DNA of 44,263 nucleotides from assembly GCA_029038705.1 (NCBI GenBank), contig GCA_029038705.1_4346.1; one strand, 5' to 3'. The stretch comes from a phage. The notes beneath the pieces were generated by a model that saw nothing but the letters and a program-made list of their open reading frames with translations, made no database searches and was not told where the DNA came from. A program made the translations under genes and the position numbers. Positions 1-4,426 of the stretch are shown piece after piece. Within the stretch, counting starts at the first letter, position 1, and each line of letters begins with the position of its first letter.

Positions 1-30
1 AAAAAAAATCCCGGCTGGGTCAGGGCCGGG
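1..30 (-). terminator. Rho-independent terminator at the end of the lysis operon
   Basis: Stem CCCGGC/GCCGGG (about 10-30); on the minus strand it is followed by a run of 8-9 U (plus-strand A8 at 1-8). Confidence 0.6.
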
Positions 31-103
31 ATAAAACTGGAGAGCAGAGGGATGGAACAGGAGGTGATTTAAGTATCGTCTGATTAGTCTTAGGTGTCAA
101 TTG

Positions 104-136
104 GTAAAATAAAACCCGGATTCGCGGTCCGGGTTT
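104..136 (-). terminator. Rho-independent terminator downstream of the endolysin
   Basis: Stem AAACCCGG/CCGGGTTT with a 9 nt loop; on the minus strand it is followed by UUUUAUUUUACC. Confidence 0.6.
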
Positions 137-262
137 CGGGCATAAGCCCCTGAACCCTACGCAGTCTCCACCACCTGGGCTGCTGCTTCAGGTTTACCAG
201 GGCTTAGTATGCAAGCACAAGCAGCGTGATGTAAGTTTACTAAACGCCTTCGTATTCGTCCA

Positions 263-748
263 TCATTTAACAGCCCTCCCGATAGCCTCCGCCTCCTGCC
301 ACTGTTTACCGTCGAACAACGCCAGACGACCCGCAGTACGGCGACGCAGACCAAGTAACGGTTTACCATTCTGGTTGATGAACAGCGCCAGCTTAGCCCG
401 CAGCGTCGTGATATCACCAGAACGCAGCGCCTTACCCGTGCCCGTAGTAGCAGCAATCACGCCAGCGCCCGCGTTATAGACCAGGTCGCAAACAGCATCA
501 AACTGCGCCTGCGTCAGTGAATGGTGCGCTGCTGCGTCAACCGCAGCTACGGCCTTAGCCATATCACGATTCAGTAACAGGAGGCCTTGCCCTGGAGTGA
601 TGGTCCGCCCAGCCTTAACATGAGGGCCATAGCTTCCGTAGCCTATTGTAAGGTACTTCTCATTCGGTGTAGCGCGATACGCAGTTCCGCGGAATCCCTC
701 AAATGCAGCGGTAAAATGCAACCCATTATCTGAAATGTTTCGAGACAC
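263..748 (-). CDS. Endolysin, glycoside hydrolase family 24 (T4/P22-type lysozyme)
   Basis: Translation contains ISDNGLHF...FEGFRGTAYRA...YLTIGYG, the E-x8-D/T-x-TIGxG lysozyme signature. Likely start is GTG at 748, preceded by GGAGGA; the track's ATG at 799 would add an N-terminal extension overlapping the upstream gene. Confidence 0.85.
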   Translation of the reverse strand: MSRNISDNGLHFTAAFEGFRGTAYRATPNEKYLTIGYGSYGPHVKAGRTITPGQGLLLLNRDMAKAVAAVDAAAHHSLTQAQFDAVCDLVYNAGAGVIAATTGTGKALRSGDITTLRAKLALFINQNGKPLLGLRRRTAGRLALFDGKQWQEAEAIGRAVK

Positions 749-998
749 GCTTATGTCCTCCGTATGACAGCCACGCCTGACGAATCTGGCGCAGCGCAAC
801 TAATGTGATTAATGTCCCAGGCAGCGTTGGCGACATGCTGCCCTGTAACAGGTGGATGCATCCGGCAGCGCAAACGATAGCGGTCAGGATGTAGAGCACC
901 CGACCAAATAACCCATCGTCAACACTGGGGTGGTATACATTAAACAGCGATGTGCCACCGATTGCCAGCATACCGCCGAACCAGAATAACTCATTCAT
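726..998 (-). CDS. Small membrane protein, holin or antiholin-like
   Basis: 90 aa with two or three hydrophobic helices (FWFGGMLAIGGTSLF, VLYILTAIVCAAGCIHLL); sits between the holin-like ORF and the endolysin. Confidence 0.5.
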   Translation of the reverse strand: MNELFWFGGMLAIGGTSLFNVYHPSVDDGLFGRVLYILTAIVCAAGCIHLLQGSMSPTLPGTLITLVALRQIRQAWLSYGGHKRVSKHFR

Positions 999-1299
999 CC
1001 GGGTCTCCTCGACGTGCGATGTATTCTCCGGCGACGATACCGGAGAGGCGGGAATAGATAGGCACCCAGAGAATAGCGATAATGAAGCCCAGGCCAGCTA
1101 TCTCGCGTTCGCCGGTAATACCAAACCATTGGGCCGCGAGAGGCGCACCAAATACGGCGCAGGTGAAGCCGGTAGCGATAAAGCAGAAGCCATCAATAGG
1201 GCCAGAAATAACGGACTTATGTTGCCGTAGGCCGATTACCCCTCCGGCTAGTGCGGCAGCGAGAAGCCACCCCGTCACTGTTTCAGTAAATTTATCCAA
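991..1299 (-). CDS. Holin-like membrane protein (TTG start)
   Basis: 102 aa with three predicted TM segments; first gene of the lysis cassette. TTG start with GGAGGA 6 nt upstream, embedded in a hairpin. Confidence 0.55.
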   Translation of the reverse strand: MDKFTETVTGWLLAAALAGGVIGLRQHKSVISGPIDGFCFIATGFTCAVFGAPLAAQWFGITGEREIAGLGFIIAILWVPIYSRLSGIVAGEYIARRGDPDE

Positions 1300-1303
1300 G
1301 ATG

Positions 1304-1340
1304 AATCCTCCAGGTGCATATTAAGTATGCACCTGGAGGA
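1304..1340 (-). promoter_or_regulatory. 15 bp perfect-stem hairpin covering the holin Shine-Dalgarno
   Basis: TCCTCCAGGTGCATA-TTAAG-TATGCACCTGGAGGA. On the minus-strand mRNA the 3' arm contains GGAGGA, 6 nt before the TTG start at 1299. Confidence 0.55.
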
Positions 1341-1371
1341 TACCACGGGTAGGAATTATCCTAATAGCGGT

Positions 1372-1665
1372 TTATTTATGTCTCCAGATGTATTGTCGTC
1401 TCTGTGGTTTCGTCGGGATATCATCGTATCCCAGCGATTTCCAGTAATTAAATAACCGATTAGAGATTGCAGCGCGTTCCTGTGTTTTAAACTCACCGAG
1501 GTTTACGGCCTTCCCGTTCTGGAATCCACAGGCGCGGACAGCTTTACGCCGCTCTTGTATCTCAGGGAACAGTGCGTTACGGCGACGCTTGTGTATACGT
1601 GTCTTCGCTCTCGGTGACAGCGGCGCAAGGCCGCTTCGTTTCAGGATGTCAGTTGCTAACGACAT
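1372..1665 (-). CDS. Hypothetical basic protein
   Basis: Track ORF 1372..1710; likely start is the internal ATG at 1665, which overlaps the upstream stop (TGATG). Arg/Lys-rich. Confidence 0.45.
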   Translation of the reverse strand: MSLATDILKRSGLAPLSPRAKTRIHKRRRNALFPEIQERRKAVRACGFQNGKAVNLGEFKTQERAAISNRLFNYWKSLGYDDIPTKPQRRQYIWRHK

Positions 1666-1934
1666 CACTCCACCCCCTCCACATGTGTAACTGACCCACA
1701 GTTCGCGCACTCGACGTAATCAGGGAACTGGTCTTTGTATTTCTGTAACTCGGCTTCCGCTTTTTCTGCCCACGCTAAAAAGTCGAAAGCGGCATTGAGC
1801 ATCTGCGTACGCCATGTCCTGAGTTCATTGAACTTACGCTCAAGTTCCGCGTAGTCTTCGTAACCAACCCAGTCACCATCGTCGTGCGGCCCTATTAAAC
1901 CGCCTTGTAATAAATATCTCTGTACCATAATCAC
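1665..1934 (-). CDS. Hypothetical protein
   Basis: 89 aa ORF with C-terminal CANCGS motif; start overlaps the upstream stop. Confidence 0.5.
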   Translation of the reverse strand: MIMVQRYLLQGGLIGPHDDGDWVGYEDYAELERKFNELRTWRTQMLNAAFDFLAWAEKAEAELQKYKDQFPDYVECANCGSVTHVEGVE

Positions 1935-2134
1935 TTCTCCTGTTTACCAAGTCGCTTAGGTGAGCAGATAGCGCGTACCTCTGAATCGTTAGGCTTGTCG
2001 CCCTGAAACAAGAAGTGCGCGTTCTCTGCGGCGCGTGCCGCTGACTGGCACGCCTCCATAGAATAAAACGTTTCTGTTGCCGCCAGGTGCATCTGACCCG
2101 CAGATAACACCCAGATAAAGAGGATGCTGGTCAT
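1931..2134 (-). CDS. Hypothetical small protein with N-terminal hydrophobic (signal-like) segment
   Basis: 67 aa; MTSILFIWVLSAGQMHLAA at the N-terminus. Confidence 0.45.
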   Translation of the reverse strand: MTSILFIWVLSAGQMHLAATETFYSMEACQSAARAAENAHFLFQGDKPNDSEVRAICSPKRLGKQEK

Positions 2135-2212
2135 TTGTAGCGAACCTCTGGTTCAGCGTAGCCATTGTCTTTCCGGGCCGGGGTGAACCCAAACCGGCTC
2201 CGGAACCATATT

Positions 2213-2398
2213 TCAAACTGCTGCAAAGTGAGTCTCACTTCCTGGTAACTTGAAGCCGTTGTCGGTCCGCGCCACGTTCCACTCAATCCCACCGTGGTAC
2301 ACAACCATGTCATCTAAATCCAGGTCTATAACGGTTCCTACTTTGAAGATGCCTTTAGTCAGTTCACTGTCTCTTTTTGTAACTTTAACTTCTAACAT
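2213..2398 (-). CDS. Hypothetical protein
   Basis: 61 aa ORF directly downstream of promoter 2431-2459; GAGGAAAACG precedes the ATG. Confidence 0.5.
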   Translation of the reverse strand: MLEVKVTKRDSELTKGIFKVGTVIDLDLDDMVVYHGGIEWNVARTDNGFKLPGSETHFAAV

Positions 2399-2430
2399 TT
2401 CGTTTTCCTCTGTCTCGTCTGTGTAAATGA

Positions 2431-2459
2431 ATAGTAGCCTATTCTATCTTAGTGTGCAA
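2431..2459 (-). promoter_or_regulatory. Sigma70-like promoter (TTGCAC-N17-TACTAT) carrying the AATAG-N4-CTATT element
   Basis: On the minus strand: TTGCAC, 17 nt, TACTAT. Plus strand carries GAATAGTAGCCTATTC. Confidence 0.55.
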
Positions 2460-2466
2460 GTAAATT

Positions 2467-2637
2467 TTATTGGTGTTTTAAAGATAATCGTTCGCCACGA
2501 ATCCAGTAGTACCTCGGGCGTCTGGCCCACTGGCACCAGCGCATAACACGGTACTTGTTGCCGTCTGACGCAACAATAAGCCCGAATCGCTTTTCTCCGT
2601 TTCTACCGGTCCAGGTTACGATGTCATTCAGTTTCAT
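2467..2637 (-). CDS. Hypothetical small protein
   Basis: 56 aa ORF (MKLNDIVTWTGRNGEKRF...), below the 60 aa track cutoff; fills an otherwise empty gap. Confidence 0.3.
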   Translation of the reverse strand: MKLNDIVTWTGRNGEKRFGLIVASDGNKYRVMRWCQWARRPRYYWIRGERLSLKHQ

Positions 2638-2771
2638 TGTTGCGTCTCCTGCAATAGTCGCTTCGATTGTTGCGTTTGGTGAAAGTGTCGCCTTTTGACG
2701 ACACTAAGTTAAAGTTGTACGCTGCTGTGTAGCAGCGTAAGTCACTCAGTAAAATCCCAAACTATTGAACA

Positions 2772-2972
2772 TCACACTTCCGGCGGTTCAGGTAACGGCA
2801 TCCAGTGAGTCACGTACTTATCGTAGTGATTCCAGAAAGGCTTTCTCCCGTCATCAGGAACGATGTAATAATCGTGTTGAACTGCGTTATTTAACGTTTC
2901 ATACACCAGGAATTCTTTATCTGTACTACCGTTGCCCGGCAGCATCTCACTACACTTAATCCACTCACCCAT
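2772..2972 (-). CDS. Hypothetical protein
   Basis: 66 aa ORF in the early minus-strand operon. Confidence 0.5.
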   Translation of the reverse strand: MGEWIKCSEMLPGNGSTDKEFLVYETLNNAVQHDYYIVPDDGRKPFWNHYDKYVTHWMPLPEPPEV

Positions 2973-2975
2973 ATC

Positions 2976-3119
2976 TCACCTCGTATTCATCGCAGTTTGA
3001 ACACCAGCTTTCCACGCCCGCCACGCGAGACGTGTCTTAACGTTCAGGTACTCTTTCTTTGAACCCTTGTTAACCGGCAGACCCTCGACGATGGCCCACC
3101 GTTCGAATGCTTCTCTCAT
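2976..3119 (-). CDS. Hypothetical small protein
   Basis: 47 aa ORF (MREAFERWAIVEGLPVNKG...); its ATG overlaps the upstream stop (ATGA). Confidence 0.3.
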   Translation of the reverse strand: MREAFERWAIVEGLPVNKGSKKEYLNVKTRLAWRAWKAGVQTAMNTR

Positions 3120-3786: not shown

Positions 3787-4005
3787 TTATTTAAAGTAGA
3801 TAGCAAATTTCTTGTAACCCGCTGGCTCGTTACGAAGTCCTTTACCGTTAGCGAAACGTTGTACGTTAACAAAATCATTTTCATCCATTCCGTCGGTGTC
3901 GAACGTAAAGAAGTTGCGCTTGTTCCCGATAATTACGCGCTCTGAGATATCGATGCCGTAAACTTCTTTGATTGCGGAAACTACGCTTGCGGTCGCTTTG
4001 TTCAT
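3787..4005 (-). CDS. Hypothetical protein (first gene of the leftward early operon)
   Basis: 72 aa ORF immediately downstream of promoter 4040-4068. Confidence 0.5.
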   Translation of the reverse strand: MNKATASVVSAIKEVYGIDISERVIIGNKRNFFTFDTDGMDENDFVNVQRFANGKGLRNEPAGYKKFAIYFK

Positions 4006-4039
4006 TTCTAAATTCCTTATGTCTCGTTTCGATAAGTGA

Positions 4040-4068
4040 ATAGTAACCTATTATGTTGGGGTGTGCAA
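4040..4068 (-). promoter_or_regulatory. Sigma70-like promoter (TTGCAC-N17-TACTAT) carrying the AATAG-N4-CTATT element
   Basis: Minus strand: TTGCAC, 17 nt, TACTAT. Plus strand reads GTGAATAGTAACCTATTATG. Confidence 0.55.
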
Positions 4069-4426
4069 GAGAATAGTTACGTTGCCGTTGTGATTCTTCG
4101 GGGAGGGTTGTGCCTTTATTCTTATTACTTGGTAACTAAAGGGCAGGCTTAAGCCTGCCCAATAATCGTTACATTTTTACGGTTGCGAATCTACGGCACA
4201 TTAAGAAACAGTATATATTTCAGCGGGTTACTTCTTTAAATGAGATTTAGATACACTTATCCTTAAACCCCAAGGCAAGCATCTCAGCTGTCTGGGAGGG
4301 GTTGACGAATCCCTCGGGGAGGGTTCGTCAACTCCGTAATATATACAAGTCCCAAAACCATTATACAAACATGTGTCAAGAACTTTCAATAACATTTTTG
4401 TAAAGATTAAATATTACAGAGATTGG

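Follow-up and report, generated by a model that had tools for sequence, protein, structure and literature searches.

A hairpin around the Shine-Dalgarno sequence of the first holin gene in a Kagunavirus-like phage, and a candidate promoter in its 5' arm

In this study, the window (the whole stretch of 44,263 nt of phage DNA that was analyzed) belongs to a Kagunavirus-like (Guernseyvirinae) siphophage, and directly before its lysis cassette it encodes a very stable RNA hairpin whose 3' arm contains the Shine-Dalgarno (SD) sequence of the first holin gene. Counterparts of this gene in Kagunavirus, Dhillonvirus, Jerseyvirus, Cornellvirus and the Serratia Tsm2-like phages are likewise preceded by a hairpin that holds the SD in its 3' arm. 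The layout is conserved with compensatory changes, and the sequence of the stems differs between lineages. We speculated, giving this reading about an even chance, that the hairpin acts like the one at gene e of phage T4, so that long transcripts would be silent for the holin and transcripts started internally, within the hairpin, would translate it.

Holin dosage sets the lysis time and hence the burst size and fitness of a phage. The cited genome descriptions of these small virulent siphophages report no RNA polymerase or sigma factor of their own, and little is known about how such phages keep the holin silent under strong early transcription toward the lysis cassette. In the searchable literature we found no account of this element and no transcript or transcription-start mapping in these genera, and in published Kagunavirus genome papers the promoters and terminators are predicted by software only. 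The proposed mechanism is known in principle from T4; what would be new is a version with a host-type promoter at a holin gene.

The hairpin and the starts of the lysis genes

The coordinates of the features are collected in Table 1. The order of the elements on the minus strand was CATAAATAAACCGCTATTAGGATAATTCCTACCCGTGGT, ATCCTCCAGGTGCATA, CTTAA, TATGCACCTGGAGGAT, TCATC and TTG GAT AAA, and on the mRNA GGAGGA is followed by TTCATC and then by the TTG at 1299-1297. The inverted repeat is 16 bp long and 100% complementary, with a 5-nt loop. The initial annotation had rightly called it perfect but had counted 15 bp, and its span of 1299-1340 took in the start codon but missed the 5' end of the hairpin by one base. 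Its placing of GGAGGA inside the 3' arm of a stable stem was confirmed, as 1311-1306 lies within the arm running from 1320 to 1305. When the minus-strand RNA was folded, as that annotation had proposed, the minimum free energies of 1346-1294 and 1355-1285 were -30.8 and -33.6 kcal/mol (about -31 to -34 kcal/mol), with z values of -6.7 and -7.05 (about -7), respectively, and 0 of 200 shuffled sequences folded as well in either case. The hairpin still formed when folded within a context of 241 nt.

Table 1. Features of the lysis region and of its upstream promoter in the window
Feature	Position	Strand	Remarks
Endolysin gene, GTG start	263..748	-	Phage_lysozyme PF00959; GGAGGA 7 nt upstream
Second holin-like gene, 90 aa, ATG start	726..998	-	phrog_2508
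First holin-like gene, 102 aa, TTG start	991..1299	-	phrog_2359
SD of first holin gene, GGAGGA	1306..1311	-	6 nt before TTG 1299-1297
Hairpin 3' arm	1305..1320	-	TATGCACCTGGAGGAT; contains the SD
Hairpin loop, CUUAA (CTTAA, mRNA strand)	1321..1325	-	An in-frame TAA here ends the reading frame ahead of the holin start
Hairpin 5' arm	1326..1341	-	ATCCTCCAGGTGCATA on the mRNA
Anti-SD		-	ATCCTCCAG, first 9 nt of the 5' arm
Predicted transcription start zone	1328..1332	-	5-9 nt after the -10, downstream of the anti-SD; usual sigma-70 geometry
Candidate extended -10, TGgTATCCT	1337..1345	-	From the PWM scan
Candidate weak -35, TTAGGA	1359..1364	-	16 nt upstream of TATCCT; TTAAGA in many relatives
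Strong sigma-70-type promoter, TTGAAA-18-TATAAT (11/12)	4360..4389	-	Heads the same-strand block of small genes

Among the short-loop inverted repeats of the 44-kb window, this one is the strongest and, of the perfect ones, the longest; by rough arithmetic the chance expectation for such repeats is about 1e-4. With four flanking pairs, the stem reaches about 20 bp, and the DNA at the hairpin is a perfect palindrome of 37 bp. A leader peptide or translational coupling was set aside as an explanation: the stop codon of the upstream gene lies 30 nt before the stem, and the only reading frame by the loop is a 3-codon GTG ORF that ends in the loop itself. When positions 1-3000 were scanned with Rfam at a permissive threshold, nothing reached the gathering threshold of any family; the sub-threshold matches were to microRNA-precursor models only (25 bits against a threshold of 67), that is, generic hairpin matches. 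No further copy of the anti-SD or of the upstream conserved block was found in the window, and the element is not a repeated regulatory motif.

No start earlier than the TTG at 1299 is possible for the first holin gene: its frame is closed by a TAA within the hairpin loop, and internal Met residues are absent from the protein. No second in-frame start with an SD was found in this gene: the protein (MDKFTETV...) has zero Met codons, and the sole alternative start is a GTG at codon 8, which has no SD. The N-terminus MDKF aligns with the ATG-initiated MDKL of the Dhillonvirus homologues, TTG and GGAGGA were kept in all 40 of the 40 coordinate-extracted relatives, and in phage Schulenburg a ribosome-binding site is annotated at the same place as GGAGGA. 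The initial annotation had proposed this start, and frame closure, the MDKL alignment and the conservation support it. It had also proposed the GTG start of the endolysin at 748, and this start too is supported: it was conserved together with GGAGG 7 nt upstream in 39 of 40 loci (L002-L041; in the remaining one a fixed offset falls out of register at the endolysin start) and agrees with the endolysin starts annotated in K1G, XY1 and fBC-Eco01. The start of the second holin gene overlaps the stop of the first (ATGAATGA). Besides supporting the TTG and GTG starts, the comparison exposed a first holin gene that is unannotated in at least one Jerseyvirus record.

The cost of opening each ribosome-binding site was calculated as the ensemble free energy for keeping positions -14 to +3 unpaired. 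The costs for the first holin (SD to start), the second holin and the endolysin were 19.1-19.3, 10.3 and 7.4 kcal/mol, respectively. In the background of 2,204 random 17-nt windows of the genome, the mean was 7.6 kcal/mol (sd 3.3, 99th percentile 16.5), and only 6 of the 2,204 reached 19.1 kcal/mol or more. These calculations support burial of the SD by the stem on long transcripts. The usual relation between structure and translation was reportedly set out by de Smit and van Duin, and by this relation initiation would be nearly abolished at 19 kcal/mol. The initial idea that SD occlusion holds the holin down was supported in silico (19 against 7.6 kcal/mol) and by the comparison of five lineages, but its second half, that the stem is opened to time lysis, found no support; such a barrier would leave almost no translation. 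The comparative data described below point instead to a possible bypass of the stem by a promoter-like element in the 5' arm.

Conservation of the hairpin in Kagunavirus and in other lineages

The closest record to the window was phage vB_EcoS_XY1, and 131 phage records matched the region. The Kagunavirus loci that were fetched, some contigs repeatedly, gave 23 distinct upstream sequences. The lower stem ATCCTCCAG/CTGGAGGAT was kept in these 23 variants with two single-base exceptions, namely an A to G change in L040, which gives a G·U pair, and a T to C change in L132, which breaks one pair. The common upper stem (TTAC-TGCATA...TACGCA-C) is interrupted; this form has a stability of -14.7 kcal/mol and an opening cost of 12.4 kcal/mol. 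The variants of the upper stem within the genus are compensatory: TTAC/GTAA in L030, which has 13 continuous pairs, GT/AC in L027, and GTGCATA/TATGCAC in the window.

Compared with the common form, the window has a 3-nt deletion and a C to T change, which together make the stem perfect. This perfect stem is unique to the window: over 1285-1375, all of the 121 GenBank records had 94.7% identity or less, the differences between XY1 and the window are confined to the hairpin, and no exact match was found in IMG/VR. The stem is far stronger than in any of the 121 GenBank relatives or any IMG/VR contig. Both window-specific changes move toward perfect symmetry, which is the signature of a quasi-palindrome template-switch mutation, and we infer that the stem was perfected in this way. 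A scan of genome contigs for prophage relatives found none.

The hairpins of the other lineages are given in Table 2. The first holin of the window is a remote homologue of those of Jerseyvirus, Cornellvirus and Tsm2 (hhalign 95%, E 3.5e-8) and is 46% identical to that of Dhillonvirus, so the hairpins stand in homologous positions; the Guernseyvirinae lineages are homologous and not independent of each other. The lineages were folded separately and their pairs were compared manually, as the stem lengths were too unequal for pair counts with MAFFT.

Table 2. Hairpins and candidate -10 elements before the first holin gene by lineage
Lineage	Loci	Stem arms (5'/3')	Tail after stem	Start	Candidate -10
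Kagunavirus		ATCCTCCAG/CTGGAGGAT	UCAUCUUG, no U-tract	TTG	TG(g/c)TATCCT
Dhillonvirus	L043, L044, L087-L101	AGTCCCAGTGAG/CTTACTGGGACT	T6-7	ATG	TGaTATAGT
Jerseyvirus	L152, L155-L164	AATCTCCGAAGG/CTTTCGGAGATT	TTTTTATT (T6ATT)	GTG	TG(t/c)TAATCT
Cornellvirus	L154, L165-L167, L172-L174	CTCCGTAGTG/CATTACGGAG	UCCUCCCACC, no U-tract	ATG	TG(a/c/t)TAA(T/C)CT
Serratia Tsm2	L153	GCCTCGG/CTGAGGC	No U-tract	ATG	TATACT without TG; conserved TTGCAG 18 nt upstream as -35
Tsm2-like	L169-L171	CCCCTG/CAGGGG	No U-tract	ATG	TATACT without TG; conserved TTGCAG 18 nt upstream as -35

What all lineages share is a 3' arm with a purine run resembling an SD, and the U-tract was found only in Dhillonvirus and Jerseyvirus; in the Tsm2-like phages the stem is followed by CUUCAC. 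In phage Shemara, the GGAG annotated as the ribosome-binding site sits in the 3' arm. The Cornellvirus variants GTATGG/CCTATAC and GTAGGG/CCTTAC have both sides of the same pairs changed. G·U pairs were found in the stems of Dhillonvirus, Cornellvirus, Tsm2 and L040, and since the opposite strand would have A·C mismatches in their place, the structure under selection is that of the sense RNA. The stems in the relatives are 7-13 bp long or interrupted, and stability among the close relatives ranges from -10 to -31 kcal/mol.

A candidate promoter in the 5' arm and transcription from upstream

The hexamer of the candidate extended -10 (TATCCT) occupies 1342-1337, and its last five bases open the 5' arm. 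The PWM used in the scan was a rough one of our own, built with consensus frequencies of the Hawley-McClure type, and eight representatives were scanned with it. The candidate ranked first in at least five of the six relatives L001, L030, L043, L100, L152 and L153, and second in the window and in L154. In the window, its score is modest and lies in the top 0.4% of positions by this rough PWM, and a stricter scan tool did not call the extended -10 there. Each of 18 representatives had exactly one TAnnnT whose 3' end falls 7-13 nt short of where the 5' arm stops; as read by eye, this is 4-9 nt short of where the complement of the SD stops. In every lineage the hexamer either overlaps the 5' arm or adjoins it.

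TGn is present in Kagunavirus, Dhillonvirus, Jerseyvirus and Cornellvirus, and its "n" is a variable position (G or C within Kagunavirus). The TG was found where the -35 is poor, and the Tsm2-like phages have no TG but have TTGCAG-18-TATACT. This trade-off between TG and -35, together with the variable "n", is as would be expected of real extended -10 promoters. Although the TG and the T at -12 are not part of the stem, they are conserved, and pairing alone cannot account for this. The stems of Cornellvirus, Dhillonvirus and the Tsm2-like phages leave out most or all of the hexamer. Part of the hexamer is inside the stem, so the conservation of the -10 is partly explained by pairing. In some relatives the -35 block takes in the end of the upstream gene with its stop codon, which may be the cause of the block's conservation. 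From these sequence patterns, we infer that the DNA encoding the 5' arm carries a putative sigma-70-type extended -10 promoter. In the window, the predicted opening cost fell from 19.3 to 5.5-7.5 kcal/mol for transcripts starting at 1328-1332, and when the 5' arm was left out in all lineages, the cost fell from 10.5-21.7 to 3.2-11.2 kcal/mol.

Other candidates around the hairpin were rejected or downgraded. Two rival -10 candidates lie upstream of it, TAGGAT at 1362-1357 and GATAAT at 1360-1355. GATAAT was called by the scan tool with GAGACA as -35, and TGGAGA-17-TAGGAT was the top PWM match in the window, and both were rejected as the conserved promoter, since their -35 lies in sequence that is replaced where the upstream gene differs. 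The block GGATAA(T/A)TCC was downgraded as promoter evidence, as it contains the upstream stop codon in the L007-type Kagunavirus, Jerseyvirus and Cornellvirus. The minimum free energy fold also has a minor hairpin further upstream, TAGGA-TAAT-TCCTA; it was dropped as a selected structure, as the common G to A change (TAAGA) is never compensated.

The lysis cassette is the end of a same-strand block of about 15 small genes, and any read-through would most likely originate at the strong promoter at 4389-4360. From 4141 to the hairpin, the scan listed two terminator-like patterns. That at 3273-3252 is on the transcript strand and its tail is poor; that at 1574-1588 is on the opposite strand. In the region 5 such patterns were found against 4.0 expected from shuffled sequence. 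Because this count is no more than shuffled sequence gives, read-through from the upstream promoter into the holin gene would be plausible. The neighbors upstream of the hairpin are small proteins without assigned function, and a search of these genes with Pfam and NCBIfam gave no family match. The upstream gene was considered as a Q-like or Com-like regulator and rejected, with no match in these databases and with no conservation of the gene between Kagunavirus and Dhillonvirus; the upstream genes are not conserved within Kagunavirus either.

The initial annotation had also suggested that the hairpin could terminate the upstream early operon. In this phage the evidence for such a role is weak: the tail after the stem (UCAUCUUG) has T (U) at 4 of 8 positions, the hairpin of the window was not among the terminators called by the scan tool, and the GenBank annotations of Schulenburg and fBC-Eco01 mark no terminator at the hairpin. 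The Dhillonvirus hairpin, with a 12-bp stem and T6-7, was called terminator-like by the scan tool, and that of Jerseyvirus shows a stem with a U-tract by eye, so in these two genera the hairpin probably also terminates upstream transcription.

Possible mechanisms and comparison with known systems

In the reading that we prefer, the hairpin would serve as an RNA insulator at the head of the lysis cassette, shielding the first holin from upstream transcripts. On transcripts from upstream, for example from the promoter at 4389-4360, the anti-SD ATCCTCCAG would pair with CTGGAGGAT, the ribosome-binding site would be locked in a stem of -31 kcal/mol, and no holin would be translated. RNA polymerase acting at TGgTATCCT (1345-1337) would initiate near 1330, downstream of the anti-SD; the short mRNA could not form the lower stem, its SD would be free, and it would be the productive lysis mRNA. 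In Dhillonvirus and Jerseyvirus, the U-tract hairpin would probably stop upstream transcription as well, and in this phage it would do so at best weakly. A weak point of this model is that it gives no account of how a host-type promoter would be kept to late times.

Other readings were weighed against this one. A constitutive attenuator, in which every lysis mRNA carries the hairpin and a trickle of ribosomes sets the lysis time with no internal promoter, is in our opinion a real but minor possibility. The trickle could come through breathing, standby binding or an unidentified factor. Such an attenuator would agree with the SD occlusion conserved in all lineages, with the weak starts and SDs of several of them (TTG, GTG, GGGA), with the only moderate stability of the common Kagunavirus form (12.4 kcal/mol to open against a background of 7.6) and with the precedent of lambda S, for which small structure changes near the SD are described as shifting the lysis time. 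However, opening would cost 19 kcal/mol in the window and 19-22 kcal/mol in L030 and L100, where initiation would be nearly abolished, and the conserved TGnTAnnnT outside the stems is left unexplained. The range of stability among close relatives is also unlike a finely tuned timer; it fits a stem that must be "strong enough" on the wrong transcripts and fits a tuned attenuator poorly, and the far stronger stem of the window is easy to tolerate only if the productive mRNA need not melt it. A very unlikely reading is a molecular switch, in which all lysis mRNA carries the hairpin and a trans-acting factor, such as a Com-like activator, a helicase or a nuclease, opens or cleaves the stem late in infection. 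The factor might be an RNA helicase or a protein of the phage that resembles Com of Mu; an antisense RNA could act likewise, and so could cleavage by RNase III of the kind seen at the lambda N leader. The stem of the window, at about 20 bp, is near the size of an RNase III substrate, but a conserved stem of this size was not found: only the window reaches about 20 bp, and the stems of the relatives are too short for RNase III. The small upstream proteins without assigned function could hold such a factor, but their genes vary as described above and no candidate was identified among them. If the switch were true, holin synthesis and with it the lysis clock would be gated post-transcriptionally, and the trans-acting regulator dedicated to this task would be conserved in both Guernseyvirinae and Dhillonvirus.

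It is unlikely that the hairpin is mainly a terminator, an attenuator of transcription or a stabilizer of the RNA end that closes the upstream operon, with burial of the SD as a by-product of compact intergenic space. The hairpin follows closely on the stop codon of the upstream gene, the Dhillonvirus version looks like a textbook intrinsic terminator and Jerseyvirus has its T6ATT, but the U-tract is missing in Kagunavirus, Cornellvirus and the Tsm2-like phages, neither the scan of the window nor the annotations of Schulenburg and fBC-Eco01 have a terminator at the hairpin, and the feature that all lineages share is the SD in the 3' arm and not the U-tract. If an efficient terminator stood directly ahead of the holin, it would itself call for a downstream promoter or antitermination. 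We consider it extremely unlikely that the palindrome acts in the DNA, as the site of a dimeric regulator or as a cruciform, and not as RNA structure. The perfect symmetry of the 37 bp and the nearly invariant outer half-sites within Kagunavirus (ATCCTCCAG and CTGGAGGAT) would suit a protein site, whereas the spacing of the half-sites varies (19 against 22 nt), pairing is maintained by covariation of the inner positions, the opposite strand would have A·C in place of G·U, and the sequences are unrelated across lineages, where a protein site would be conserved or would track its cognate protein.

If the preferred, T4-like reading is true, about 50 nt would unite three roles, namely hiding the SD, starting transcription from within the hiding structure and, in some genera, termination, and the solution of T4 gene e would be used with host-type promoters in several genera of phages of E. 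coli, Salmonella and Serratia. The genera concerned (Kagunavirus, Jerseyvirus and Dhillonvirus) include candidates for phage therapy, and the element would offer a compact natural insulator part and a handle on the engineering of lysis time.

In phage T4, the long early transcripts of gene e, and also of soc, 49 and I-TevI, are described as folding an inhibitory helix over the ribosome site (PMC3014915). The promoter of gene e is described as lying within the DNA of the 5' strand of this helix, and its transcripts, which do not carry that strand, as well translated (McPheeters et al. 1986; PMC3014915). As far as these accounts describe it, the likeness is that a lysis gene lies downstream of early transcription and that its SD is sequestered in a hairpin on long transcripts. 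They differ in that a gp55-dependent late TATAAATA gives the timing in T4 and the gene encodes the endolysin, whereas here a sigma-70 extended -10 is the candidate and the gene encodes a holin. The phages studied here are siphoviruses, and the hairpins of two of their lineages have, in addition, the look of an intrinsic terminator.

For lambda S, small structural changes near the holin SD are described as shifting the lysis time (bioRxiv 10.1101/2025.05.14.654169). In that account, as would be the case here, RNA structure at the holin SD (sdi and the downstream stem-loops) modulates ribosome access and lysis timing, and in lambda a short structure (nt -21 to -7) splits initiation between two start codons, those of the antiholin S107 and the holin S105 (bioRxiv 10.1101/2025.05.14.654169). 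In contrast, the holin here has no dual-start motif, and the stem is far more stable. In the late operon of lambda, pR'-tR', an intrinsic terminator overlaps the start region of the next gene. The likeness is that the element stands directly upstream of the holin gene at the boundary of early and late genes and that the Dhillonvirus and Jerseyvirus versions have a stem with a U-tract; the differences are that no Q-like antiterminator was recognized here, that Kagunavirus has no U-tract, and that the predicted transcription start would lie inside the hairpin.

Origin of the perfect stem and the upstream junction

The perfect 16-bp stem (window 1305-1341), whose 3' arm holds the Shine-Dalgarno (SD) sequence of the first holin gene, was found only in this genome when 121 GenBank relatives and IMG/VR were compared. 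The window differs from the usual imperfect Kagunavirus hairpin by a 3-nt deletion and one C->T change. Because both changes increase the symmetry, the perfect stem looks like the product of a quasi-palindrome template-switch mutation, or possibly of an assembly artefact. The length of the deletion preserves the frame of the upstream ORF, and read-through of this ORF would stop at a TAA in the hairpin loop.

Some Kagunavirus relatives (L006, L007, L013, L016 and others) carry a different gene directly upstream, which ends in ...KQLLG* and whose stop codon falls within GGATAATTCC. In the window, this block (1349-1366) is retained as non-coding sequence 3' of its own 97-aa gene. Judging from the swapped gene and the kept block, the region just upstream of the lysis module is a recombination junction.

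Possible holin coupling and flanking minus-strand elements

The two holin genes overlap at 991-998 (ATGAATGA), where the first stops and the second starts, and opening the SD region of the second holin costs 10.3 kcal/mol, which is higher than the genome mean. The second holin may be translationally coupled to the first, and therefore the hairpin could gate both holins.

Two stem-loops with T-runs lie 3' of the endolysin (window 1-160, minus strand), and a terminator is annotated at the matching place in phage Schulenburg. The terminator scan of the window listed neither stem-loop, and the endolysin in the window is not followed by spanin genes. Directly downstream of the strong sigma-70-type promoter (4389-4360), approximately 350 nt of the minus strand (4005-4360) have no obvious gene; this region, which contains an inverted repeat and a terminator-like hairpin, is a possible early leader or non-coding RNA.

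Features located in the window and in L152, the locus of Salmonella phage vB_SenS_PVP-SE2
Feature	Position	Location	Sequence
Stem-loop 1 after endolysin	near 140-105	minus strand	CCCGGA..TCCGGG+TTTTATTTT
Stem-loop 2 after endolysin	near 35-1	minus strand	CCCGGC..GCCGGG+ATTTTTTTT
15-bp inverted repeat	window 4298-4335	gene-less minus-strand region	GGAGTTGACGAACCC...GGGATTCGTCAACCCC
Terminator-like hairpin	window 4160-4141	minus strand, gene-less region 4005-4360	
L152 first holin	682-963	NC_073186.1 ~2425-2706, reverse complement	GTG start, VDDKYLWL...

Comparison with related phages

PHIRE analysis of the Kagunavirus fBC-Eco01 gave seven copies of tgAATAGTa-ccTATTat-T, labelled "phage RNA polymerase promoters" (PMC9825357). 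Because the motif has partial dyad symmetry, its sequence suggests a regulator-binding site instead of a phage RNA polymerase promoter.

In Salmonella phage vB_SenS_PVP-SE2, the first holin gene (93 aa) is unannotated in RefSeq. The 360-bp "gap" ahead of "holin class I" in NC_073186.1 contains this gene and its own SD-sequestering hairpin, and the encoded protein shares 58-74% identity with the annotated first holins of Serratia phage Tsm2 and phage Shemara.
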